DNA of 64,000 nt from a virus (IMGVR_UViG_3300010149_000008); one strand, 5' to 3'. Shown: positions 49,506 through 64,000, numbered from the stretch's first letter. Notes: generated by a model from the sequence alone, not told the origin. Numbers and translations are program-made.

Positions 49506-49534
49506 GTGTAAATTTAAAACAATCATTATATAAT
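49506..49534 (+). promoter_or_regulatory. Sigma70-like early promoter
   Basis: GTGTAA-N17-TATAAT upstream of the SSB gene. Confidence 0.75.
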
Positions 49535-52607: not shown

Positions 52608-53984
52608 ATGAGCTTAGAAAAAAACTTTTCAAAATTCGGCAAACCTTTTCAAGAAAAAGTATTTCAAGGAATGCTAACAGACCCCATGTGGTCAGGACAA
52701 ATGGTAGAAGTAGTCAGTCCAGACTATTTTGACTTGAAATATCTTAGCTTCTTATGCGACAAGTATTTTTCTTATTACAAGAAGTATAAAACTTTTCCAA
52801 CACTTACAATTTTAATTACAATTATTAAAGAAGATTTATCAAAATCTAAAGATTCAATACTAAGAGATCAAATAATAGAGTATCTTCATCGTATGAAAAC
52901 AAATCCTGACATTGGTGATCTACAATATGTAAAAGATAAGTCACTAGAGTTTTGCAAGAGACAGGCATTTAAAGAAGCGCTAGAACAAAGTGTTGATCTA
53001 ATTCAAACTGAAAAATATGAGTCTGTTATTAATATAATGAAAGAAGCAATTTCTGTTGGTATGCCTAATACCGCCGGGCACAATTTCTTTGACGATATTG
53101 AAGCACGTTTTGTCCAAATTAATAGGCAAGTTTGTCCAACAGGATTGACTAGAATTGATGCACAAGACATTTTAAGAGGTGGTTTAGGCAGAGGAGAGCT
53201 AGGAGTAATTGCAGCAAATACAGGAGTTGGTAAATCACACTTCTTAGTAGCAATGGGATGTGCTGCAATGTTAGCGGGTAAAAATGTAATCCATTATACA
53301 TTTGAGCTATCAGAGCATGAAACTGGAAAGAGATATGACTCAAATCTTTGTGACATACCTTCAAATGAAGTTATTGAAAGAAAGCGAGAAGTAGTTGGAA
53401 AATATGAAAAAATGGAACTAGGCAAATTAATAATTAAAGAGTATGCTACAGGCTCTGCTTCTGTCATGACTTTAAGAAATCATATAGAAAAATTAACGCT
53501 AAAAGGTTTTAAACCTAGCTTAGTAACAGTTGACTATGCTGATGTTATGAAAAGTTCTAGAGCTTATGACTCTTTAAGACATGAATTAAAACTTATATAT
53601 ACAGAATTAAGAAATCTTGCTGTAGAGCTTAACATACCGATATGGACAGCTTCACAAGCAAACAAAGATTCTTCAAAGTCTGATATTGTTGGTCTAGAAA
53701 ACTTAGGAGAGTCATATGGTAAGGCACAAGTAGCTGATGTTGTGTTGTCCATAAGCAGAAAGCCTATGGAAAAAAGCGAAGGTACTGGTAGAATATTTGT
53801 AGCAAAAAACAGAGCGGGAAGAGATGGTCTTCTATTCCCTATAAATATTGACACAGCAAAGTCTAAGTTTAAAATTTTGGATGAAAGTGAACTGACGCTT
53901 AATGAAGCTGTTACTCAAGACAATAGTGACATGAAAAACAAATTAAGAGAAAAGTGGAAAGAGGTAAACAAAAAAGATGATTAG
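52608..53984 (+). CDS. Replicative DnaB-like helicase (T4 gp41-like)
   Basis: GELGVIAANTGVGKS, YTFELSE, VTVDYAD, IWTASQAN, AQVADVVL, AKNRAGRDG. Confidence 0.93.
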   Translation: MSLEKNFSKFGKPFQEKVFQGMLTDPMWSGQMVEVVSPDYFDLKYLSFLCDKYFSYYKKYKTFPTLTILITIIKEDLSKSKDSILRDQIIEYLHRMKTNPDIGDLQYVKDKSLEFCKRQAFKEALEQSVDLIQTEKYESVINIMKEAISVGMPNTAGHNFFDDIEARFVQINRQVCPTGLTRIDAQDILRGGLGRGELGVIAANTGVGKSHFLVAMGCAAMLAGKNVIHYTFELSEHETGKRYDSNLCDIPSNEVIERKREVVGKYEKMELGKLIIKEYATGSASVMTLRNHIEKLTLKGFKPSLVTVDYADVMKSSRAYDSLRHELKLIYTELRNLAVELNIPIWTASQANKDSSKSDIVGLENLGESYGKAQVADVVLSISRKPMEKSEGTGRIFVAKNRAGRDGLLFPINIDTAKSKFKILDESELTLNEAVTQDNSDMKNKLREKWKEVNKKDD

Positions 53985-54489
53985 TATTTTTCTTAGTGAC
54001 GAGTTAAAAGATGTTTTAAAAGAAAACAACATTAGTGTACATAATTATATTCCTGCATATAATGGTGAAAGTGCAGGTCTAGATTTGTTTAATTGTAATA
54101 AAGATATTTCGTTAATACCTACGCAGTATAAAAATGTTACAAATGAAAAACACTACACACAGCATAAATTTAAGACGTTAATATCAACAGGTTTAAGATT
54201 GATTGTTCCTAAGGGATATGTTGCACTAGTTCAAGAACGCGGTTCTATTACAAAAACTCCTCTTAAGGTTAGAGCAGGCGTTATAGATAGCGGTTATACA
54301 GGCGAAATATTTGTTAATTGTATTAACATTGGTTCGAAACCTTTTAACTTAAAAAAAGGGCAGAAGTTACCTTTTCAAATTGTAGTAGTTAAATGTGACA
54401 ACAATTTTAGAGTAATAGATGAAAAAGAATATTTAACATTATCATCAGCTTCTCAAAGAAAAGAAGGAATGGTGGGAAGTTCAGACTAA
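53977..54489 (+). CDS. dut: Trimeric dUTPase
   Basis: SAGLDL, STGL, ERGS, GVIDSGYTGEI, RKEGMVGSS (motifs 1-5). Confidence 0.88.
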   Translation: MISIFLSDELKDVLKENNISVHNYIPAYNGESAGLDLFNCNKDISLIPTQYKNVTNEKHYTQHKFKTLISTGLRLIVPKGYVALVQERGSITKTPLKVRAGVIDSGYTGEIFVNCINIGSKPFNLKKGQKLPFQIVVVKCDNNFRVIDEKEYLTLSSASQRKEGMVGSSD

Positions 54490-54501: not shown

Positions 54502-56289
54502 ATGAAAAAACAATGCTATGGTATTACTATAGATTTAAAAAAAGATGATAAATTAAGTGACTTTGCTAAAAATCTTTTAAAAGATTACTATATGAGTGAA
54601 GATGAGAAATCACCTCAAGAAAGCTTCGCAAGAGCAGCAACAGCATTTTCAGAAGATAAAAAATTAGCGCAAAGAATATATGATTATGCAGCAAGTGGTT
54701 GGTTTGTTTTTAGTTCACCTATTTTGTCAAATGCACCAAAACCAAATCAAAAGTCTAGAGGCATGCCTATATCTTGTTTTTTAACTTATGTAGATGATTC
54801 GCTTGAAGGATTAGTTTCTCATACAGAAGAGTTAAGGTGGATGTCAGTAAAAGGAGGCGGTGTTGGAGGTCACTGGAGTGATATTAGATCAAATAGTGAT
54901 ATATCACCTGGCCCTATTCCTTTCTTAAAAACAGTAGACAGTGATATGACAGCATATCGTCAAGGAAAAACTAGAAAAGGAAGCTATGCAGCTTACATGG
55001 ACATTAGTCATCCTGATATATTAGAATTTTTAAACCTTAGAGTTCCTACTGGAGGAGATGTTAATAGAAAATGCTTTAATCTAAATAACGCTGTAAATGT
55101 TACAGATGAGTTTATGGAAGCAGTATTAAATGGTGACAATTGGGATCTTAAAGATCCTAATGACAGTTCTGTAAGAGAACAAATTGACGCTAGAAAGCTC
55201 TGGCAAAGAATAATTCAAGTTAGATTTAGAACAGGAGAGCCTTATGTTAACTTTATAGATGAAGCTAACAGACATTTACCAAAGTTTCAAAAAGACCTAG
55301 GTTTAAAAATTCATGGAAGTAACCTTTGCAATGAAATACATTTAGCAACTTCTAGTGAAAGAAGTGCTGTTTGTTGCTTAAGCTCTCTTAATATTGAAAA
55401 ATATGATGAATGGAAAAACACGAGTATTGTTGCTGATCTTATAGAGTATTTAGACAACGTAATTTCTTATTTTGTTAATAACTCTCCTAAAACTTTGTCT
55501 CGAGCAATAAAGTCTGCTAGAGCTGAAAGAAGTCTAGGCTTAGGCGCTATGGGATTTCATGCTTACTTGCAATCAAAAAACATACCATTTGAATCCAGTA
55601 TTGCTGTTGCTGCAAACAAAGGAATATTTATGGATATCAAAGAAAAGGCAAAACAACAAACACATAAGTTGGCAAAAGTTAAAGGTGAGTGTCCAGATGG
55701 TAAGGGATACGGTGTAAGAAACTCTCATCTTCTTGCAATAGCACCTAACGCAAACTCTTCAATTATAGCAGGAACATCTCCTTCTATAGAACCTTGGAAG
55801 TCAAATGCATATACACATAGAACAAGAGTTGGTTCTTACTTAGTTAAAAATCCACACTTAGAAAAAGTTTTAAAAAGTTACTGGTCTAAAGATTTCTATA
55901 GTATAGATTATAATGAGTGGCTAAGTAAACAATGGAAGTCCATAATTCTATCAGAAGGTTCTGTTCAACATTTAGATTACATGTCAGACTGGCATAAGGA
56001 AGTATACAAAACAGCTTTTGAGCTCGATCAACGGTGGATAGTAGATCATGCAGGTGACAGACAACAATTTATATGTCAAGGACAGAGTGTTAATTTGTTT
56101 TTTCCAGCAGGCACTGAAAAGTCTGTTGTCAATGCAGTTCATATTCGAGCCTGGAAAAAGAAGTTAAAAGGGCTGTATTATCTTAGAACAAATGCAGGAG
56201 CATCAGCTGAAAAGGTTAGTCAAAAAGTAGAGCAAAACAAGCTTCAAGATTTTGCTGATCCTGATGATTGTTTGAGTTGTCAAGGATAA
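54502..56289 (+). CDS. nrdA: Ribonucleotide reductase class Ia alpha subunit
   Basis: SSPILSN, ISCF, GGGVG, GSNLCNEI, CCLSS, LGLGAMG, IAPNANSS, LYYLR, C-terminal CLSCQG. Confidence 0.97.
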   Translation: MKKQCYGITIDLKKDDKLSDFAKNLLKDYYMSEDEKSPQESFARAATAFSEDKKLAQRIYDYAASGWFVFSSPILSNAPKPNQKSRGMPISCFLTYVDDSLEGLVSHTEELRWMSVKGGGVGGHWSDIRSNSDISPGPIPFLKTVDSDMTAYRQGKTRKGSYAAYMDISHPDILEFLNLRVPTGGDVNRKCFNLNNAVNVTDEFMEAVLNGDNWDLKDPNDSSVREQIDARKLWQRIIQVRFRTGEPYVNFIDEANRHLPKFQKDLGLKIHGSNLCNEIHLATSSERSAVCCLSSLNIEKYDEWKNTSIVADLIEYLDNVISYFVNNSPKTLSRAIKSARAERSLGLGAMGFHAYLQSKNIPFESSIAVAANKGIFMDIKEKAKQQTHKLAKVKGECPDGKGYGVRNSHLLAIAPNANSSIIAGTSPSIEPWKSNAYTHRTRVGSYLVKNPHLEKVLKSYWSKDFYSIDYNEWLSKQWKSIILSEGSVQHLDYMSDWHKEVYKTAFELDQRWIVDHAGDRQQFICQGQSVNLFFPAGTEKSVVNAVHIRAWKKKLKGLYYLRTNAGASAEKVSQKVEQNKLQDFADPDDCLSCQG

Positions 56290-56325: not shown

Positions 56326-57294
56326 ATGTCATTATTAAAATATAATACAACATACAAGCCCTTTAAGTATCCTTGGGCCATGGAGATTGCTGAGTCACAT
56401 GAGAAGATACATTGGGGTAGCTGGGAAGCTAAGCTAGCAGAAGACGTAAATCAGTGGAAAGGTGGTAAAATTTCTTCTATAGAAAAAAACCATATTACAC
56501 AAATCCTTAGACTGTTTACACAAAGTGATGTTCAAGTAGGCGGAAACTATTGTGATTTGTTTATTCCTAAGTTTAAGAATAATGAAATTAGGAGTATGCT
56601 ATTAAGCTTTGCAAATCGTGAAGGCACACATCAACGTAGTTACGCTCTGCTCAATGATACGTTAGGTTTACCTGAAGAAGAGTACAGTGCTTTCTTAGAG
56701 TATAAAGAGATGAGTGACAAGATAGAGTTTATGCAGCAGAATGATGTGTCTACTCGAAAAGGTTTAGGATTAGCATTAGCACAATCAGCATGCAATGAAG
56801 GAATGAGTCTTTTCTCTGCTTTTGTCATGCTTCTTAATTATCAGCGATATGGTAAGATGAAAGGAATGTGTGAGATTGTTGAATGGTCTATTCGAGACGA
56901 AACAATGCATGTTCAAGGAATGACTAGATTATTTAGAGAATATGTTGCTGAACATCCTCGAGTTGTAAATGATGACTTTAAAAAATCAATTTACAAAATG
57001 TACCGAGAAGCTGTTAAGCTTGAAGATAAAGTTATTGACTTAGCGTATGAAATGGGTGCAATTGAAGGTTTAGATAAAGATGAGGTAAAAATATACATTA
57101 GATATCTAGCTGATAGAAGGCTTATTCAGCTAGGATTGAAGCCTAATTTTAAAGTAAAGACAAATCCTTTAGACTGGCTTGACTGGATTATTAACGGCGA
57201 CAGCTTTAAGAATTTTTTCGAAGGGACTGTAACTGATTATAACGCTGACGGTATGGGCGGGTCAGATTGGGGTTGGGAAATAATTGGAGGATAA
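56326..57294 (+). CDS. nrdB: Ribonucleotide reductase class Ia beta subunit
   Basis: FTQSDVQVG, EGTHQRSY, EGMSLFSAF, WSIRDETMH, NFFE. Confidence 0.96.
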   Translation: MSLLKYNTTYKPFKYPWAMEIAESHEKIHWGSWEAKLAEDVNQWKGGKISSIEKNHITQILRLFTQSDVQVGGNYCDLFIPKFKNNEIRSMLLSFANREGTHQRSYALLNDTLGLPEEEYSAFLEYKEMSDKIEFMQQNDVSTRKGLGLALAQSACNEGMSLFSAFVMLLNYQRYGKMKGMCEIVEWSIRDETMHVQGMTRLFREYVAEHPRVVNDDFKKSIYKMYREAVKLEDKVIDLAYEMGAIEGLDKDEVKIYIRYLADRRLIQLGLKPNFKVKTNPLDWLDWIINGDSFKNFFEGTVTDYNADGMGGSDWGWEIIGG

Positions 57295-57538
57295 AATGAA
57301 TAAAGAAATATTGTTTTTTAGCTCACCTTGGTGTGGGCCATGTAGACAAATAAAATCAATGTTAAGCAAAGAAATTATTAGCGAGCTCGGCATAAGAATT
57401 GTTGATATAGCTGATGACATGGAGACAGCTACAGCTCATGAAGTAATGAACGTTCCTACTTTTGTTAAAATCGTAGAAGGTGTTGAAGTTGCTCGAGTAA
57501 TAGGAATGACAACTATTGATACACTAAGAAAGTTGTAA
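57284..57538 (+). CDS. Thioredoxin
   Basis: FSSPWCGPC, VMNVPTFV. Confidence 0.92.
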   Translation: MEDKMNKEILFFSSPWCGPCRQIKSMLSKEIISELGIRIVDIADDMETATAHEVMNVPTFVKIVEGVEVARVIGMTTIDTLRKL

Positions 57539-57592: not shown

Positions 57593-58195
57593 ATGAATTT
57601 TCTAACAGAAATATCACCATTAATAAAAACAATTGAGTTAAAGCAAGAACCTATAATTATTGTTGTCAATGAGTTTAATGAAGAAGCAGCGACAGAGTTT
57701 TCTACAGCTATGAGCTTAGCACAAAATACTGGACAAAAAGTTGTGCCTGTTGTAATTGATTCTTACGGCGGACAAGTTTATTCACTTATGTCAATGATTT
57801 CTTCAATAAAATCTTCAACTATTCCTGTTGCTACTATTGTGCAAGGCAAAGCAATGAGTTGTGGTGCAATATTATCTTCTTTTGGCTCTGATGGTCTTAG
57901 GTTTATGGATAAAGATGCCACAATGATGATACACGACGTATCAGGATACGCTTTTGGAAAAGTAGAAGAATTAAAGGCAGATGCTAGGGAGTCAGAAAGA
58001 TTAAATAAAAAGGTTTATAAAATGATGGCTAGAAATTGTGAAAAGCCTGATGAATATTTTTCAAACTTAATTCATGATAAAGGTCATGCAGATTGGTTTT
58101 TAGATGCAGAAGAAGCGAAAGAACATAATATTATTAATCAAATTAGAGTTCCACATTTAAAAGCTTCTGTTGTTGTTGAAATAGATATGGAATAA
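57593..58195 (+). CDS. clpP: ClpP-family serine protease
   Basis: IDSYGGQV, GKAMSCGA (Ser), MIHDV (His), DWFLDAEEAKEHNII (Asp). Confidence 0.9.
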   Translation: MNFLTEISPLIKTIELKQEPIIIVVNEFNEEAATEFSTAMSLAQNTGQKVVPVVIDSYGGQVYSLMSMISSIKSSTIPVATIVQGKAMSCGAILSSFGSDGLRFMDKDATMMIHDVSGYAFGKVEELKADARESERLNKKVYKMMARNCEKPDEYFSNLIHDKGHADWFLDAEEAKEHNIINQIRVPHLKASVVVEIDME

Positions 58196-58294
58196 AGTAA
58201 TATATAATATAAATTAATTTTAAGACCATGACAAAAAGTCCAGATCAACATGGCATTATAAAGAAAGTTTTCTTTATACTAAAAGGAATATAAA

Positions 58295-59089
58295 ATGGAA
58301 CAGTTTAAAACATTAAACAAAGATAAAGATTATGTGATATCGCTCCAACAAGAAGTAGGTGTTACTGCAGACGGTGTTTACGGTCCTAATACACATAGAG
58401 CTGTAAGGAATTACTATGGCATGCCTATTATGATGCATATGGGCAAAGTTGTACCTATAGACTCACCTTTAGAGATAGACTGGTCTACGTCTCTATACGA
58501 GCTAGATGACGGAACAAAAAACTGGTATAACAGAAAATCAGATCCTAGCACGATTTGTGTTCACTGGGGTGGTTTAAATACAAGACATTGCTATAATGTT
58601 TTTAACTTAGCTAAGGGTAGACATGTATCATCACACTTTCTTATTGGTAAAAATCATAAGACAGACGAATATGAAATTTTGCAATGTCTAGACACAGGAT
58701 TAGTTGCATATCATGCAGGTAAATTCAATAAACATTCTATAGGTATCGATATTTGTATGCATCCAGAAGAAAAGTATTGGGAACGTACAAAAAAATGGTA
58801 CCCAGATGCTAGACTTGAAGTTTGTAAAATTCCTGATAGACGTGTTAAAGGTAGAAAAACTGTAATGATTGGAGAAGAATTATCTGAACTTTCAAGAGAC
58901 TTTTTGCAATCATTAAGAGAATCAACAGGTTTGTTAGAAAAGCCGGTATGCGAAAGCTTAGAAGTAATGCCTGTAGCTGAAGCATCAAAATTTAGCATTG
59001 TAGGACATCACAATATATCAGCAAAAAAGTGGGATGTTATACCATGGGCAGAAAAGTTATACTACGGATTAGACAAGGAACTTTTTTAA
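58295..59089 (+). CDS. Endolysin: peptidoglycan-binding domain plus N-acetylmuramoyl-L-alanine amidase (Amidase_2)
   Basis: LQQEVGVTADGVYGPNT; ICVHW, SSHF, AYHAG, NKHSIGID, VGHHNI..KKWD. Confidence 0.85.
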   Translation: MEQFKTLNKDKDYVISLQQEVGVTADGVYGPNTHRAVRNYYGMPIMMHMGKVVPIDSPLEIDWSTSLYELDDGTKNWYNRKSDPSTICVHWGGLNTRHCYNVFNLAKGRHVSSHFLIGKNHKTDEYEILQCLDTGLVAYHAGKFNKHSIGIDICMHPEEKYWERTKKWYPDARLEVCKIPDRRVKGRKTVMIGEELSELSRDFLQSLRESTGLLEKPVCESLEVMPVAEASKFSIVGHHNISAKKWDVIPWAEKLYYGLDKELF

Positions 59090-59098
59090 AGGTTATTT

Positions 59099-59815
59099 AT
59101 GGAAAAATTACGTTATTTATACAATGATAAAATTGGCAGTGTAGAATTAGTTCAACATATGGGAGAAGATATAACTGTAGTTAATTCTGCGAGAGTATCA
59201 TTTGGTGTACAAAAACAAAAAATAGACGAAAAAGATAAAAAGCTAATTAGCTATCTTATTAAGCATAGACACACTTCTACTCTCGAGCATAATATTGCAA
59301 CTTTTAGAATTAAAGTTCCTTTGTTTGTTAGGTCTCAACATCATAGACACAGAACGTGGAGTTATAACGAAATATCTAGAAGATATACAGACGCTGATAT
59401 ACAGTTTTATGAGCCTTTGAGCTTTAGAACTCAACACAAAAGTAATAGACAAGCTTCAAATGCAGAAGATACAATCAACCCAGAAATAGAAATTAAAAGT
59501 GACATATGCTCAAAACCTTTAATTAAACTAGCTTCTAAAGCTATTGTTGATCATCATGACAGCTGTATAAAGCTTTTTGATAACTTACTTGCAGCAGGTG
59601 TCTGTAGAGAGCAGGCAAGAGGAATATTACCTCAAAACTTATACACAGAATATTATGCAACTGCAAATCTAAACAATATTTTAAAATTTATTGACTTAAG
59701 AACACACGAAGGTGCACAATGGGAAATACAACAGGTTGCATTGGCAATGTTAGATATTATAAAAGATCTGTGGCCAGAAACAGTAAATGCTTATAGAGAA
59801 ACTAGAGGCGTGTAA
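59099..59815 (+). CDS. thyX: FAD-dependent thymidylate synthase
   Basis: VVNSARVSF, HTSTLEH, RHRTWSYNEISRRY, REQARGILP, LRTHEGAQWEI. Confidence 0.97.
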   Translation: MEKLRYLYNDKIGSVELVQHMGEDITVVNSARVSFGVQKQKIDEKDKKLISYLIKHRHTSTLEHNIATFRIKVPLFVRSQHHRHRTWSYNEISRRYTDADIQFYEPLSFRTQHKSNRQASNAEDTINPEIEIKSDICSKPLIKLASKAIVDHHDSCIKLFDNLLAAGVCREQARGILPQNLYTEYYATANLNNILKFIDLRTHEGAQWEIQQVALAMLDIIKDLWPETVNAYRETRGV

Positions 59816-59838
59816 ATATTAAATTAATATTATATAAT
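59810..59838 (+). promoter_or_regulatory. Sigma70-like early promoter
   Basis: GTGTAA-N17-TATAAT; the -35 box overlaps the thyX stop codon. Confidence 0.72.
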
Positions 59839-59879: not shown

Positions 59880-60254
59880 ATGATTATAGAAGAAAAAAGA
59901 CGTCTTATTCTCGAGAGACATAAAGATTTAATCAATGCGTTAGTAAGATGCAGAATAATGATTGAAGACAGAGAAGATCCTACTGTATTAGACATAATGA
60001 CAGATATGAGGGCTCTTGAAGGAATTGTTACTGTTAGACAAACCCGACCAATCAGTGATCCAGTTACAAATGCAGGGCATAGAATAGTAGAGCTAAATGT
60101 CTCATATATTCCAAAGTTCATAAGTGAAGAAAACAAATTAAAAAAAGTAGCAAAATTAATAAAATCAGTTGAAGGTGTTGATATGATTAAGGTTATGGAG
60201 CACGACAACGATATTATTAATCAAAGATTACAAAAAAGACCAATGATTTTATAG
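59880..60254 (+). CDS. Hypothetical protein (possible ferredoxin/ACT-like fold)
   Basis: IMTDMRALEGIVTV...LIKSVEGVDMIKV repeated beta-alpha pattern. Confidence 0.5.
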   Translation: MIIEEKRRLILERHKDLINALVRCRIMIEDREDPTVLDIMTDMRALEGIVTVRQTRPISDPVTNAGHRIVELNVSYIPKFISEENKLKKVAKLIKSVEGVDMIKVMEHDNDIINQRLQKRPMIL

Positions 60255-60261
60255 GATAAAA

Positions 60262-60483
60262 ATGGAAAATAAAGATTTTAAATTAGATGACAATGTTATT
60301 GCACACATTGCAAGAATTTTACAGGTTTCAATGCTTACTGGAACTGATATTATTGATCATATGAGAATGATTAGATTTACTTGTAAAGATGAAAAGTTAG
60401 TATTGCAAGATGAGTACGCAAAAATTTTTGATGGATCTTTAGACAACATGCTTAAAAATGCGCAAGAAAAGAAAGATGACTAA
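60262..60483 (+). CDS. Small hypothetical protein
   Basis: 73 aa, SD agga, TAATG overlap with the next gene. Confidence 0.6.
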   Translation: MENKDFKLDDNVIAHIARILQVSMLTGTDIIDHMRMIRFTCKDEKLVLQDEYAKIFDGSLDNMLKNAQEKKDD

Positions 60484-60860
60484 TGAACAAAGACAAATTG
60501 TTTGATATTTTTGAAAAGCGTGAAAGTTTTATGCATTTAATTAAGCAAAAATTTGAAGACTCTTACCCACAGTGGCCAGTTGATTTATCAACAAAAAAAG
60601 CACAGCATACATGTAGAGAGACAGCGCTTAAAGGTGTTGAAGAAATGTTTGAAGCACTTGGTCATCTAAAAAACTGGAAGCCTCATCGCGAAACAGAAAT
60701 GCCTGAAATTGATAGAGAAGAGTTCTTAGAAGAAATTGTAGACGCTTTTAATTATTTTTTCTCTCTAATGATTTTAATCGGAGTTGACGTTGAAGAATTC
60801 TATACAGCTTTTTTAAGCAAGGATGAGATCATAAGAAATAGAATTATTCAAGGATACTAG
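60483..60860 (+). CDS. All-alpha NTP pyrophosphatase (MazG/dimeric dUTPase/T4 gp56 dCTPase-like)
   Basis: VEEMFEAL, KNWKPHR, EEFLEEIVDAFNYF. Confidence 0.8.
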   Translation: MNKDKLFDIFEKRESFMHLIKQKFEDSYPQWPVDLSTKKAQHTCRETALKGVEEMFEALGHLKNWKPHRETEMPEIDREEFLEEIVDAFNYFFSLMILIGVDVEEFYTAFLSKDEIIRNRIIQGY

Positions 60861-60862
60861 AT

Positions 60863-61534
60863 GTGATAAGTAAGCATGACACAATTAGTTTGTTTGGCAA
60901 CAAAAGCCTAAGAGCGTCATGCTTTGTATCATATGTGTGGAATATAATAGAAGACAAAATATTATATGTTCTAGGTATGACAAACAGTAATACAATTACT
61001 GTTTATATTGACAATGACAGCATAATATTTTCAGCTACTTCTAATCATAACATATTATGCGTTGAAAGATTTAACTTTTTTTACGATCATGTTTTAACAT
61101 CAATGACAGACTTATGCATAACTTTAACTGTAAACTTTATATCTTCTAAAATAAAAAAAATAAATTATGACATGTGCTCTTTTTACTATGACATAGAAAA
61201 CAAAGAAGATGATGGTATGATAGAAATATACTGTGACGCTTACTATGACATTGAAAGCTATAAAGATTTTAAGACAGAAATTACAATTCAACTAGCAAGA
61301 GAACTGCAGTATCTTATACATAGGAATATTATTGAAAGCAACATCGATACATGTGAAGTTGCAAAAATAGATTCAGTTTTTGAATGTGTTAATATTGTTA
61401 GAAAAGTAAAGAGTATAAGTTTTAAATCAGCAGCTGATTATTTACTTAATATAGATAAAGTGTCTATAGAAGAATATCAAGAAGTGTGTAATATAAACAA
61501 AGAGGTTGAACATGAAATCAGAAAACAACAATAA
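60863..61534 (+). CDS. Hypothetical protein
   Basis: 223-aa ORF with a GTG start; no motif recognised. Confidence 0.5.
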   Translation: MISKHDTISLFGNKSLRASCFVSYVWNIIEDKILYVLGMTNSNTITVYIDNDSIIFSATSNHNILCVERFNFFYDHVLTSMTDLCITLTVNFISSKIKKINYDMCSFYYDIENKEDDGMIEIYCDAYYDIESYKDFKTEITIQLARELQYLIHRNIIESNIDTCEVAKIDSVFECVNIVRKVKSISFKSAADYLLNIDKVSIEEYQEVCNINKEVEHEIRKQQ

Positions 61535-61880
61535 AACTAGGCGAAGCGATTTAGCTTATGAGGCAAAAGATCTTTTACAAAAAGCTTCACGTGTTCCTAC
61601 AAAATGGTTAGATATTTTTAATGCTATAGAAATGTTTAGAAAAAAAGTACAAGCAGGAAGAGATTCATACGACTCTACAGCTAACGATTCGCAAGTAGGT
61701 CTAATGTCACCAATGCTTGTCATGTTTGCTTTAATGCTTGAGACTAACATGTTAATGGAACCATTAGACACAAACATAATAATAAACATACTTTCAGATA
61801 ATTTCCGTGAAGAAAGGCACATTGAAACGCTTAAAGAGCTACTGCGTACACTTCACCCAGAAAAAAAAGAGTTTAAATGA
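61506..61880 (+). CDS. Hypothetical protein
   Basis: 124-aa ORF overlapping both neighbours; SD gagg. Confidence 0.5.
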   Translation: MNMKSENNNKTRRSDLAYEAKDLLQKASRVPTKWLDIFNAIEMFRKKVQAGRDSYDSTANDSQVGLMSPMLVMFALMLETNMLMEPLDTNIIINILSDNFREERHIETLKELLRTLHPEKKEFK

Positions 61881-62803
61881 AAAATAATTTAACTATTAAA
61901 AGCTTACTAAAGCTTCAAGACAATTTTTCTTCTACATTTTATGATAAAAAAACAATGTCAGCAAAACAAAAAGAAGAAATGTTAAAAACAATTACATTAG
62001 CAATGCATCATGAAGTATCAGAAATTGTTTCTTCTTCTAACTTTAAAGTTTTTGATAAAACTGACTATGAAGTAGATAAAGATAAGATTTTATATAATTC
62101 TATAGATGTGTTTAGATATCTAATGGCAATAATGAATCTTTATGAAATATCTAGCGAAGAATTTATTTCTTCATTTGACGAGAGAGATATTCATTTAAAA
62201 GTAAGCAAGAACATTAAAAGCCCAGAAACATCTCAAAAGGTTATTGTTGTTGACATAGATGACGTTGTTTGTGACTTTCGTAACTATTTTAATAATTGGT
62301 TGTATAAGACTTACGGTGTTTACGTAGATCAAAATAATACTTCTTACTATTCTTCAAAAGAAGTAAAAAATAAAGGTTTGAGTCCTGAAGGTGTTTTTGA
62401 AAATTTCATTTCATGTAATGAATTTCTTAACATTCCACCAATAGATAGCATGGTAAAATTTCTAAGGTTGGCAAAAGAAGAAAATATATACATTCAGCTC
62501 CTTACTTCTAGACCAAGCAGCAATTTAAAATGTAAATATCAAACTTATGCTTGGCTAGAAAATAACAATATACCTTTTGACAATTTAGACTTTGCGGCAG
62601 AAAAATATATTTGGGTTGCAAAACGTGACTTTTATTTAAACGGGAATTTAATGTGTGCTATAGATGACAGTCCTAAACATGCAATGGAGTACGCAACTCA
62701 CGACATTAAAGTCTTTGTACCAAAAATGCCATACAATGATCAAATAAGTCATGAAAACATACATCACTACGTTCTTGAAGACTTAGAAAAATTTAAATTT
62801 TAA
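61877..62803 (+). CDS. Fusion of a degenerate MazG-like domain and a HAD 5'(3')-deoxyribonucleotidase-like domain
   Basis: N-terminus MHHEVSEIV...ILYNSIDVFRY; C-terminus VIVVDIDDVVCDF (DxD), LLTSRP, CAIDDSP. Confidence 0.8.
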   Translation: MKNNLTIKSLLKLQDNFSSTFYDKKTMSAKQKEEMLKTITLAMHHEVSEIVSSSNFKVFDKTDYEVDKDKILYNSIDVFRYLMAIMNLYEISSEEFISSFDERDIHLKVSKNIKSPETSQKVIVVDIDDVVCDFRNYFNNWLYKTYGVYVDQNNTSYYSSKEVKNKGLSPEGVFENFISCNEFLNIPPIDSMVKFLRLAKEENIYIQLLTSRPSSNLKCKYQTYAWLENNNIPFDNLDFAAEKYIWVAKRDFYLNGNLMCAIDDSPKHAMEYATHDIKVFVPKMPYNDQISHENIHHYVLEDLEKFKF

Positions 62804-62807
62804 TTAC

Positions 62808-62836
62808 GTGTAAATATTGTCAACACGTATTATAAT
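62808..62836 (+). promoter_or_regulatory. Sigma70-like early promoter
   Basis: GTGTAA-N17-TATAAT upstream of the second ThyX-like gene. Confidence 0.75.
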
Positions 62837-62895
62837 ATTAAAGTAATAAGAAAAAATACTTTATATGATATTAAAAACAAATCACGGAGAAATAT

Positions 62896-63882
62896 ATGCC
62901 TGTTAACAACAATCTTGAACCAGTAGCACTTCCTATGCAGCTTAAGTTTGGACAAGATCCAGTTACAAATTACATTAACAATCTAGAATCACTAAAAGTA
63001 GAAGTAATTGATGCGCCTACAAGAGAACAAGCACAAAATATTGCTTGGCACATGACAAAAGCAACATGGGCAGATTCACCTTCTGAAACTGATTTTAAGA
63101 ACTCAACACCCGAAGAGGCTTCTACAAATCTTCAAGATGTACTTAATTTTCGTGCACTTCCTACTCCAATGGAGTGTTTAGGATTTACATTTAAGATTAG
63201 TGGTATTGATGTACAAACTGTTACACATCTTATTCGTCATAGAGCAGGATCTTTTGCAGCACAATGTACAGGTGACAGAGACTTGAGACACGATAATGCA
63301 CTAGTTCCTGAGTCAATTGAAAACTGCAGAAAAGATGATGATGACTTTTATTTTAGGTATTTAGATATTGTCAAGGAAGCAAAACTACTATACTCTGAAA
63401 TGGTTGATAGCAAAAAAGTTTCAATGATGGACGCAAGAGTAATACTTCCTAAGTGCATGGAGACTTTTTATATTGCAAGATTTAATCTTAAAGACTTGAT
63501 CGGTTTTATTAAACAACGTCAAGACGTTCAAATCCAACCTGAGGTTGATAATATTTTAGCAACGCGCATCGCACGTGCTGTTTGTGAAGCAATTCCAGAA
63601 GTATCAACTTGTCTAGACTTTAACAAGCCTGATATGCACTACGTAAGAACTTTTAGAGTTAAATTGCCAGATGGAACTTACACTTCTCGTGGAACAAATC
63701 TATATCAGCCAGAACCTAAAAATGATTTATTTGATTATAATGAAAATGATTCAATATACCAGTGCAAAAGAGAAGACTTAAATGGTAATAAGTCAGGTGA
63801 AGAAAAAGTATTTACACGAATGTGGAATGACGATGTAAAAGCTGTAAGTTTAATTAAACAAAAACTTAATAGCGAATTTTAG
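62896..63882 (+). CDS. Second, divergent ThyX-like flavoprotein
   Basis: FTFKISGID..TVTHLIRHRAGSFAAQC, DARVILP, NLKDLIGFIKQR; motif Ser replaced by Cys. Confidence 0.8.
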   Translation: MPVNNNLEPVALPMQLKFGQDPVTNYINNLESLKVEVIDAPTREQAQNIAWHMTKATWADSPSETDFKNSTPEEASTNLQDVLNFRALPTPMECLGFTFKISGIDVQTVTHLIRHRAGSFAAQCTGDRDLRHDNALVPESIENCRKDDDDFYFRYLDIVKEAKLLYSEMVDSKKVSMMDARVILPKCMETFYIARFNLKDLIGFIKQRQDVQIQPEVDNILATRIARAVCEAIPEVSTCLDFNKPDMHYVRTFRVKLPDGTYTSRGTNLYQPEPKNDLFDYNENDSIYQCKREDLNGNKSGEEKVFTRMWNDDVKAVSLIKQKLNSEF

Positions 63883-63961
63883 TGTAAAACTGTTATAGAC
63901 AGTACATATTAATGAAAAATAATTAAAAACTTGGTAATTTATTTATAAAAGGAACAATTCA

Positions 63962-64000
63962 ATGAAAAAGATTTATCTTGCTAGCGGTTGGTTTAATACT
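63962..64000 (+). CDS. Start of a probable nucleoside 2-deoxyribosyltransferase-family protein (truncated by the window)
   Basis: SD aagga, then MKKIYLASGWFNT, which resembles the KIYLAGPxF N-terminus of the NDT/MilB fold; only 13 codons visible. Confidence 0.5.
   Translation, partial: MKKIYLASGWFNT

Follow-up and report, generated by a model that had tools for sequence, protein, structure and literature searches.

A second ThyX-fold gene and its cluster

The stretch analyzed here (the window) comprises 64,000 nucleotides, bases 64005-128004 of a 133-kb IMG/VR fragment (IMGVR_UViG_3300010149_000008) that is estimated to be ~53% complete. The source is an uncultured marine jumbo phage, a myovirus of ~33% GC, which encodes a gp23-type capsid, PolA, RecA, DnaB and gp32, and whose near relatives have genomes of 200-240 kb; one of these, G001, is 239,550 bp long, has terminal repeats and is rated complete. 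The stretch is present in marine metagenomes from many studies (22 runs, as assembled contigs). Near the 3' end of the window, downstream of a complete route to dTMP, lies a second cluster of nucleotide-metabolism genes that includes a second gene of the ThyX fold. This gene, ThyX2, and the module that surrounds it are the subject of this report.

The cluster comprises the following features. Counts refer to a set of 80 related IMG/VR loci with ThyX2 orthologues (ThyX2 identity down to 59%), and lengths are given in amino acids (aa).

59811-59838, plus strand: promoter motif TGTAAA-N16-TATAAT, exact match, which opens the first transcription unit of the cluster.
59880-60254, plus strand: conserved 124-aa open reading frame (ORF), syntenic in 45 of the 80 loci, without family match.
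60262-60483, plus strand: conserved 73-aa ORF (o73), always 5' of the pyrophosphatase gene and found in 65 of the 80 loci, including the most distant, without family match.
60483-60860, plus strand: all-alpha nucleoside triphosphate pyrophosphatase (NTP-PPase) of the MazG/dimeric-dUTPase superfamily, 125 aa (phrog_12184, E 4.6e-16; PF08761, E 0.0056, a weak match).
60863-61880, plus strand: two ORFs, of 223 and 124 aa, with little conservation between relatives (31 and 13 of the 80 loci, at low identity), without family match.
61877-62803, plus strand: 308-aa protein in which a diverged MazG-like domain (residues 1-115; PF08761, E 1.2e-6) is fused to an NT5C-type HAD 5'(3')-deoxyribonucleotidase domain (residues 116-300; PF06941, E 1.9e-6).
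62809-62836, plus strand: promoter motif TGTAAA-N16-TATAAT, exact match, directly 5' of ThyX2.
62896-63882, plus strand: ThyX2, a class-A paralogue of the ThyX-fold flavoenzymes, with the signature RHRAGSFAAQCTGDRDLR and a conserved C-terminal extension of 85 residues (Thy1, PF02511, E 1.9e-20).
63962-64411, plus strand: nucleoside 2-deoxyribosyltransferase (NDT), 149 aa, complete, running past the window end at 64000 (PF05014, E 8e-13).

An earlier reading of the window, made from the sequence only, had placed the NTP-PPase, the HAD fusion, a second ThyX-fold gene and the start of an NDT gene in this cluster, and all four are found intact on the plus strand.

The NTP-PPase is present in 67 of the 80 loci. 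Its acidic metal-binding motifs, EEMFE and EEIVD (EExxE...EExxD), are intact and conserved, as is characteristic of the superfamily, and it is a candidate dCTPase or dNTPase analogous to gp56. The N-terminal domain of the fusion protein is a paralogue of this enzyme (BLASTP E 2e-7) in which the acidic motif positions vary between orthologues. The name "pseudo-MazG" that it had been given is plausible because the domain is such a diverged paralogue with variable acidic residues, but the label is unproven. The HAD domain conserves DxDD, LTxRP, K and DDxxK (HAD motifs I-IV) and scores 28.3 bits against PF06941 (cut-off 24.8), which places it among the NT5C-type proteins. Its substrate may also be a sugar phosphate (compare RB69 gp51, PMC13326640).

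The NDT protein belongs to the transferases (49 bits against PF05014, cut-off 28.8). It retains the catalytic motifs Tyr / D-GT-WE-G / NLM, including DIGTIWEAGYA, and its nearest solved structure is the deoxyribosyltransferase 6evs (E 2.3e-11). Downstream of NDT are small ORFs, an extended short-chain dehydrogenase/reductase (SDR) of the "epimerase/dehydratase" type, a conserved 259-aa protein and a VWA protein. The 259-aa protein (66459-67238 in window numbering by extrapolation; L002:10464-11243) has weak matches to HNH-endonuclease PHROGs, and its place after the SDR gene is kept in 52 of the 80 loci, which is unusual for a homing endonuclease.

Fold and active site of ThyX2

The AlphaFold2 (AF2) model of ThyX2 (pLDDT 78.8) adopts the ThyX fold, and Foldseek matches it to ThyX structures at probability 1.00 and a target-normalised TM-score of up to 0.75. 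ThyX2 scores 54.6 bits against TIGR02170, the NCBIfam model of the thyX equivalog, and falls under the cut-off of 87.9 bits. When it is aligned to ThyX of T. maritima, Ser88 is replaced by Cys, Arg90 by Gly, Tyr91 by Asp, the folate His53 by Leu, and Asn85/Glu86 by Ala/Ala. The ThyX motif RHRxxSxxxxSxRY, with Ser88, Arg90 and Tyr91, is therefore absent from ThyX2, and the substitutions of these three residues are invariant in 20 orthologues. ThyX2 has the ThyX fold, yet it fails two defining sequence features of the ThyX family. The sequence-only reading had described a Cys-variant ThyX, and the alignment bears this out; the best sequence match in the PDB is 3g4c, which is the S88C mutant of T. 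maritima ThyX.

The RHR motif, the first Ser of the ThyX motif and the equivalents of Glu58, Arg147 and Arg174 are retained, and so are the arginines with which ThyX binds FAD and phosphate. In ThyX, Arg174 acts on dUMP by N3 deprotonation. Published work assigns dUMP activation to this residue and finds Ser88, Arg90 and Tyr91 to be conserved, with mutants that consume the flavin carbinolamine up to >100-fold more slowly (PMC8316439, PMC11940539). By sequence, the active site of ThyX2 is rewired at positions which mutagenesis has shown to be necessary for methylene transfer. The 20 orthologues, down to 60% identity, show little or no variation in the segment THxIRHRAGSFAAQCTGDRDLR and in the 85-residue C-terminal extension (GTNLYxPEPKND...).

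ThyX2 beside the canonical thymidylate synthase

Canonical ThyX (ThyX1) and ThyX2 occur together in the source phage, in the complete 239.5-kb relative G001 and in G008, an unrelated complete phage of 95.9 kb. Of 37 syntenic loci of jumbo phages, 35 have ThyX1 as their canonical enzyme; the other two have a full ThyA with Asn177 instead, and ThyX2 is unchanged there. ThyX2 is most probably not a spare thymidylate synthase (TS), because it coexists with ThyX1, is kept when ThyA replaces ThyX1, is strongly constrained and lies below the equivalog cut-off. The idea of a base-modification pathway would fall if the second ThyX simply made dTMP; a redundant dTMP synthase is very unlikely.

The possibility that ThyX2 is a pseudogene or a recent duplicate was also considered, and is ruled out by the strong constraint and by the only distant kinship to ThyX1.

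The two ThyA genes (L046:3716-4513 and L055:3423-4256) fill the slot occupied in the window by an amidase gene and ThyX1 (~58295-59815), an in-situ non-orthologous replacement.

The upstream route to dTMP consists of the following genes, all of which were identified by profile, in agreement with the complete set of dut, nrdAB and thyX noted from the sequence earlier.

53977-54489, plus strand: trimeric dUTPase (dUTPase/DCD-like) of the canonical dTMP route (PF00692, E 1e-12).
54502-56289, plus strand: nrdA, large subunit of ribonucleotide reductase (RNR) (PF02867, E 2.8e-107).
56326-57294, plus strand: nrdB, small subunit of RNR (PF00268, E 3e-67).
59099-59815, plus strand: ThyX1, canonical flavin-dependent thymidylate synthase with the motif RHRxxSxNExSRRY (Thy1, E 1.9e-48).

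ThyX1 scores 173.2 bits against TIGR02170 and passes the equivalog cut-off. Between nrdB and thyX1, within the nucleotide-metabolism block, are genes for a ClpP-family protease and an N-acetylmuramoyl-L-alanine amidase (57593-59089), which have their own copy of the promoter motif upstream, at 57534. Another exact copy of TGTAAA-N16-TATAAT is found at 49507, and when matches with one mismatch are included, seven are found as against 2.2 expected. The exact copy at 62809-62836 and a GGAG ribosome-binding site at 62887 precede ThyX2, as anticipated by the earlier statement that this gene has a promoter of its own.

The ThyX2 family and its neighborhoods

A profile search of 1.84 billion representatives retrieved 1197 relatives of ThyX2, of which 69 are below E 1e-30. 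The family is almost wholly uncultured, with ~1200 representatives at 50% identity and no studied member. In a sample of 22 sequences the equivalents of Glu58, Arg78, Arg80, Arg147 and Arg174 are invariant, as is the Cys at the Ser88 position, while the Asp that replaces Tyr91 hardly varies. In a protein atlas, ThyX2 matches only viral clusters labeled "FAD-dependent thymidylate synthase family". A nucleotide search of cultured phages with the stretch gave no match, and among 50,697 cultured phage records the only class-A carrier is Geobacillus phage GR1.

The gene order o73, NTP-PPase, (MazG-HAD), ThyX2, NDT, SDR is kept even in the most distant of the 80 loci, where RNR and ThyX1 no longer adjoin the cluster. 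For a comparison of classes, a further 80 viral loci were sorted by motif and with home-made hidden Markov models, and partner genes were counted within 3 kb of the ThyX-fold gene; weak partners may escape this procedure, and loci of the same lineage are not independent counts.

Class A, motif FSQQC[TS]GDxDxR, mean ~325 aa: a partner in 17 of 17 loci (MazG-like/HAD in 12, a mini-TS in seven, NDT in five, a kinase in five, SDR in two).
Class B, motif MQHGGRDNDWR, mean ~355 aa: a partner in 14 of 17 loci, the MazG-HAD fusion directly upstream.
Class C, short and Tyr-less, mean ~270 aa: a partner in five of 37 loci.
Class D, canonical SQRY, mean ~230 aa: a partner in one of 11 loci.

The upstream partners are dUTPase_2/MazG domains by Pfam, which stand alone, are fused to NT5C, or end a protein of ~430 aa. 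In prokaryotic genome contigs, the set of MazG, kinase and mini-TS genes is found at six of seven class-A loci. Among the other 73 loci, NDT and HD genes occur at one and dCMP deaminase at three, and MazG, kinase and mini-TS at none. The earlier reading would have been undone by a cluster that was not conserved; co-occurrence analysis instead shows a cluster kept across the 80 IMG/VR loci and neighbors that are specific to the class.

Several members of the wider family are worth recording. The set of MazG-like, kinase, class-A ThyX and mini-TS genes (L189-L194) is found on contigs of up to 454 kb binned as metagenome-assembled genomes of Saccharimonadales, Shapirobacteria and other Patescibacteria, and these loci may be prophages, binned phage DNA or cellular genes. 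Class B (L125, L126, L136, L143, L147, L148, L160, L168-L174, L183 and others) is without the Cys, keeps the Asp, and lacks a neighboring mini-TS or kinase; probably it represents a distinct, uncharacterized enzyme. Among the ThyX2-like proteins P0145, P0160 and P0278, one has an N-terminal domain with a sub-threshold match to GT2 glycosyltransferases (22.1 bits, cut-off 23.3), and in the other two an HNH endonuclease and an intein interrupt the protein or are fused to it.

Partner genes beyond the window

The sequence-only reading had recommended a look past 64 kb for a kinase or a glycosyl- or aminotransferase. A dNMP kinase (in relatives), a mini-TS and the SDR are found there, and no DNA-acting transferase is linked to the module. 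The kinase and mini-TS features are read from the loci of relatives; the source genome's own copy sits beyond the 133-kb record. The downstream region of G001 encodes a split DNA polymerase III alpha, a 294-aa P-loop kinase with an extra C-terminal domain, thymidine kinase (TK) and dCMP deaminase. By iterative searches, the C-terminal domain of the kinase forms one family with proteins of ~160-170 aa, here termed mini-TS, whose genes are located directly 3' of ThyX2-like genes. This arrangement is found in seven loci of small phages and in GR1, where the protein is annotated as hypothetical; in the jumbo-phage group the mini-TS is fused to the dNMP kinase, and the gene is ~11 kb downstream. 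In the L106 operon a Tmk-like kinase, a protein of no assigned function, SDR, ThyX2-like, mini-TS and DNA polymerase B genes follow one another with overlapping stops and starts.

The mini-TS family is homologous to the ThyA core (profile against PDB thymidylate synthases, E 2e-5), and its L106 member scores 25.9 bits against Pfam Thymidylat_synt. A Pfam ThyA search of the source contig and four jumbo-phage relatives gave no matches, as the mini-TS there is too diverged and is found by iterative search only. The family keeps the SRR, Cys and RS(S)xV motifs, with the catalytic Cys and Arg nearly invariant. At the position of ThyA Asn177 it has an invariant Asp and agrees with the sequence features of AfhB-type enzymes. 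An Asp at this position is a switch that favors dCMP (PMC13326640). In a Foldseek search the nearest structure to the mini-TS model is the dCMP hydroxylase AfhB of phage HY126 (9iqc and 9iqu, the latter at E 3e-9 and a query-normalised TM-score of 0.73), and MilA is also among the matches; the mini-TS is ~50-70 residues shorter than AfhB.

The adjacency of the two genes could mean that ThyX2 is a flavin-reducing or flavin-carrying partner of the mini-TS, in a two-component flavin monooxygenase that forms 5-hydroxy-dCMP as AfhB does, with the mini-TS supplying the Cys-activated dCMP. The genes adjoin or overlap in eight unrelated loci, the closest structural match of the mini-TS is AfhB in spite of the difference in length, ThyX2 has lost the folate His and the residues that handle the carbinolamine, and the flavin that AfhB-type enzymes use together with O2 is loosely bound (PMC13326640). 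However, a flavin reductase of the nitroreductase type is already present beside ThyX2 in GR1, ThyX2 keeps the nucleotide-binding equivalents of Arg147 and Arg174, and it outlasts the decay of the mini-TS, with class A also found where no mini-TS is nearby. We consider this arrangement quite improbable. A complex prediction with two copies of the L106 ThyX2-like protein and the mini-TS returned a score of 0.00, which weighs neither way.

The decay is seen in G001 and G002 (L086:14155-15039, minus strand; L184), whose mini-TS sequences have lost the Cys, Arg and His; both genomes are without the SDR. In G010, G012 and G013 the mini-TS is intact and the SDR is kept. Decay of the mini-TS and absence of the SDR are a possible co-loss; the SDR, rather than ThyX2, may be the closer associate of the mini-TS. 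Since ThyX2 persists in spite of the decayed mini-TS and the missing SDR, it has a function of its own.

The cluster in GR1 (OK896991: 23909-30175, L003) comprises genes for NDT, thioredoxin, an HD protein, a glycosyltransferase, a P-loop kinase, RNase H, a nitroreductase, ThyX2 and mini-TS. It shares ThyX2 (45% identity), NDT (40%), the kinase (31%) and the mini-TS with the source group, and the nitroreductase-type flavin reductase, HD protein and glycosyltransferase genes adjoin these shared genes.

The source fragment also carries two tandem genes for GT1-family glycosyltransferases of ~417 aa each (G000:C1:12821-14472), ~50 kb upstream of the window, and like pairs are found in G002 and G011.

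Proposed pathway and alternatives

Taken together, the gene content and active-site residues incline us, with a little better than even confidence, to the view that the module remodels the pool of deoxypyrimidines ahead of replication and most likely yields a C5-modified pyrimidine nucleotide for the phage DNA, with ThyX2 as a catalytic component. The all-alpha NTP-PPase would convert a canonical dNTP to its dNMP, most likely dCTP, as gp56 of T-even phages does. ThyX2 would then modify C5 of that dNMP, with its nucleotide-phosphate and flavin binding and its Arg174 equivalent kept and its methylene-transfer corner rebuilt, and would act jointly or in series with the AfhB-like mini ThyA-fold protein. 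The dNMP kinase fused to the mini-TS would phosphorylate the modified product. The MazG-like/HAD fusion and NDT might turn the unwanted canonical nucleotide into a nucleoside and move its deoxyribose to other bases, TK could return the recycled nucleoside to the pool, and the downstream SDR possibly supplies a sugar donor.

In ThyX2 itself, dCMP as the substrate is suggested by the loss of the folate His and by the Asp that replaces Tyr91; the AfhB-like partner, the dCMP-type Asp of the mini-TS and the flavin reductase of GR1 point the same way, and a product bearing a hydroxyl is then plausible. The invariant Arg174 equivalent and the one coupling to dCMP deaminase fit dUMP. It is also conceivable, although we regard it as unlikely, that ThyX2 and the mini-TS form a hybrid enzyme in which the truncated ThyA core activates dCMP through its Cys and the rebuilt ThyX flavoprotein provides the electrophile in the form of a flavin-bound one-carbon unit or a flavin hydroperoxide. 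If so, two unrelated thymidylate-synthase folds would be joined in one reaction, and a new DNA pyrimidine would be found in abundant marine phages and in phages of candidate-phyla bacteria.

Several observations weigh against a C5-modifying pathway centered on ThyX2. G001 and G002 still hold ThyX2, NDT and NTP-PPase beside a decayed mini-TS, and because ThyX2 persists there, its partnership with the mini-TS is not obligatory. The presence of the mini-TS means that ThyX2 is perhaps not the sole, or even the main, C5-modifying enzyme. Glycosyltransferases do not track the module, as GT1 genes are found in the source phage, G002, G003 and G011 and none in the complete relative G001. In GR1 and the complete 70-kb phage G005, ThyX2 is the only TS-like gene, so dTMP synthesis is possible in these phages. 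The S88C mutant of T. maritima ThyX is said to be still active, so the Cys alone proves nothing. The Arg174 equivalent, which in ThyX activates dUMP, is invariant, and one class-A gene overlaps a dCMP deaminase gene; both facts fit dUMP as substrate, and even plain synthesis of dTMP.

These points bear on a rather unlikely alternative, namely ordinary salvage and pool rebalancing for an AT-rich genome. In such a scheme the pyrophosphatases and HAD domain produce nucleosides from surplus dNTP and dNMP, NDT exchanges their bases, TK phosphorylates them again, the DNA is canonical, and ThyX2 is a divergent but genuine dTMP synthase, perhaps with another reductant, one-carbon donor or oxygen tolerance. 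All parts are of the salvage type (HAD, NDT and TK), with NDT nearest to bona fide transferases, and the AT-rich genomes of the source phage and GR1 (32% GC; PMC10237291) favor simple rebalancing. The single coupling of a class-A gene to dCMP deaminase, the status of ThyX2 as sole TS-like gene in GR1 and G005, and the invariance of the phosphate-binding Arg residues along with the dUMP-activating one are consistent with it as well. However, salvage leaves unexplained why ThyX or ThyA is retained beside ThyX2 over deep divergence, why Ser88, Arg90, Tyr91 and His53 are replaced, and why only class A is accompanied by a dedicated kinase and by a mini-TS of the AfhB-like, dCMP type. The score of ThyX2 under the equivalog cut-off also argues against it.

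Another explanation is that the product of the module stays out of DNA, being a modified nucleotide, nucleoside or free base that acts, for example, as an inhibitor of a host enzyme or a decoy against nucleotide-based defenses. MilA and MilB are a TS homologue and an NDT-like protein that form a pair in nucleoside-antibiotic pathways. The TS-like enzyme, NDT-family protein and nucleotidase of the module recall this logic, with MilA itself a structural match of the mini-TS, and the lack of a linked DNA-acting transferase agrees with it. In contrast, the dedicated dNMP kinase and the setting among replication genes (in L106 a DNA polymerase gene is directly downstream) point to a DNA precursor, and the NDT protein resembles transferases rather than nucleotide hydrolases (E 2e-11 for NDT as against 0.29 for DNPH1). 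We judge a product kept out of DNA to be very improbable.

The preferred reading, a modified pyrimidine nucleotide destined for DNA, retains the scheme that had been proposed from the window, in which a dNTPase is paired with a TS-like enzyme. That scheme is strengthened by a conserved unit built like the dCTPase, TS homologue and kinase of T4; the existence of a non-canonical base, dCMP as substrate and recycling by HAD and NDT stay at the level of proposal. If the reading is correct, a ThyX-fold enzyme that modifies C5 in partnership with a minimal ThyA-fold protein would represent new enzymology. A widespread lineage of marine jumbo phages would then also have modified DNA, which bears on evasion of restriction and CRISPR, on sequencing bias in viromes and on DNA-modifying tools. 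The cultured carrier GR1 makes the pathway testable now.

Relation to known systems

To our knowledge, every characterized route by which phages make C5-modified pyrimidine nucleotides relies on a ThyA-fold enzyme. Literature searches found no characterized ThyX-fold hypermodification enzyme and turned up no characterized system of the composition seen here, which agrees with what had been said of the cluster from the sequence.

The thymine-exclusion enzymes of phages with hydroxymethyluracil or uracil in their DNA include the dTTPase-dUTPase of SPO1 and phi-e and the dTMP phosphatase of PBS2. Like these phages, the module has a dNTP pyrophosphatase and a dNMP 5'-nucleotidase, which are apt to remove a canonical nucleotide. 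Unlike them, it fuses both domains in one protein, and the source group retains TK and a canonical ThyX, which makes thymine an improbable candidate for the excluded base.

ThyX2 resembles canonical ThyX (T. maritima TM0449 and M. tuberculosis ThyX) in its fold, its RHR motif and its Glu58, Arg147 and Arg174 equivalents; it differs in the Ser88Cys, Arg90Gly, Tyr91Asp, His53Leu and Asn85/Glu86 to Ala/Ala changes, the C-terminal extension and the sub-cut-off score. PolB (4p5b), the UMP/dUMP C5-methylase of polyoxin biosynthesis, is among the structural matches of ThyX2 and is likewise a ThyX-fold paralogue recruited beyond plain supply of dTMP. However, PolB is a bacterial methylase with the ThyX catalytic apparatus, whereas ThyX2 is 14-17% identical to it and has another signature motif.

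The closest parallel is the replacement of cytosine in T-even phages (PMC13326640). These phages have a MazG-like dCTPase, a dedicated dNMP kinase and, in addition to their ordinary thymidylate synthase, a TS homologue; dCMP deaminase and TK are present as background enzymes. The components are the dCTPase gp56, the dCMP hydroxymethylase gp42 (or, in RB69, DLP3 and HY126, the 5-hydroxy-dCMP synthase AfhB) and the dNMP kinase gp1, together with td, cd and tk. The module similarly has a MazG-like dNTP pyrophosphatase, a second enzyme of the TS type beside the canonical one and a dNMP kinase. Its genome group also encodes dCMP deaminase and TK, and its mini-TS is structurally nearest to AfhB. In contrast to the T-even system, its in-window enzyme has the unrelated ThyX fold, its ThyA-fold partner is cut to ~160 residues and fused to the kinase, it adds the NT5C-type HAD fusion and NDT, and it has no linked DNA glycosyltransferase. 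The module is a variant of the phage pathways built from a dNTPase, a TS homologue and a kinase, with an uncharacterized class of ThyX and a minimal ThyA-fold partner.

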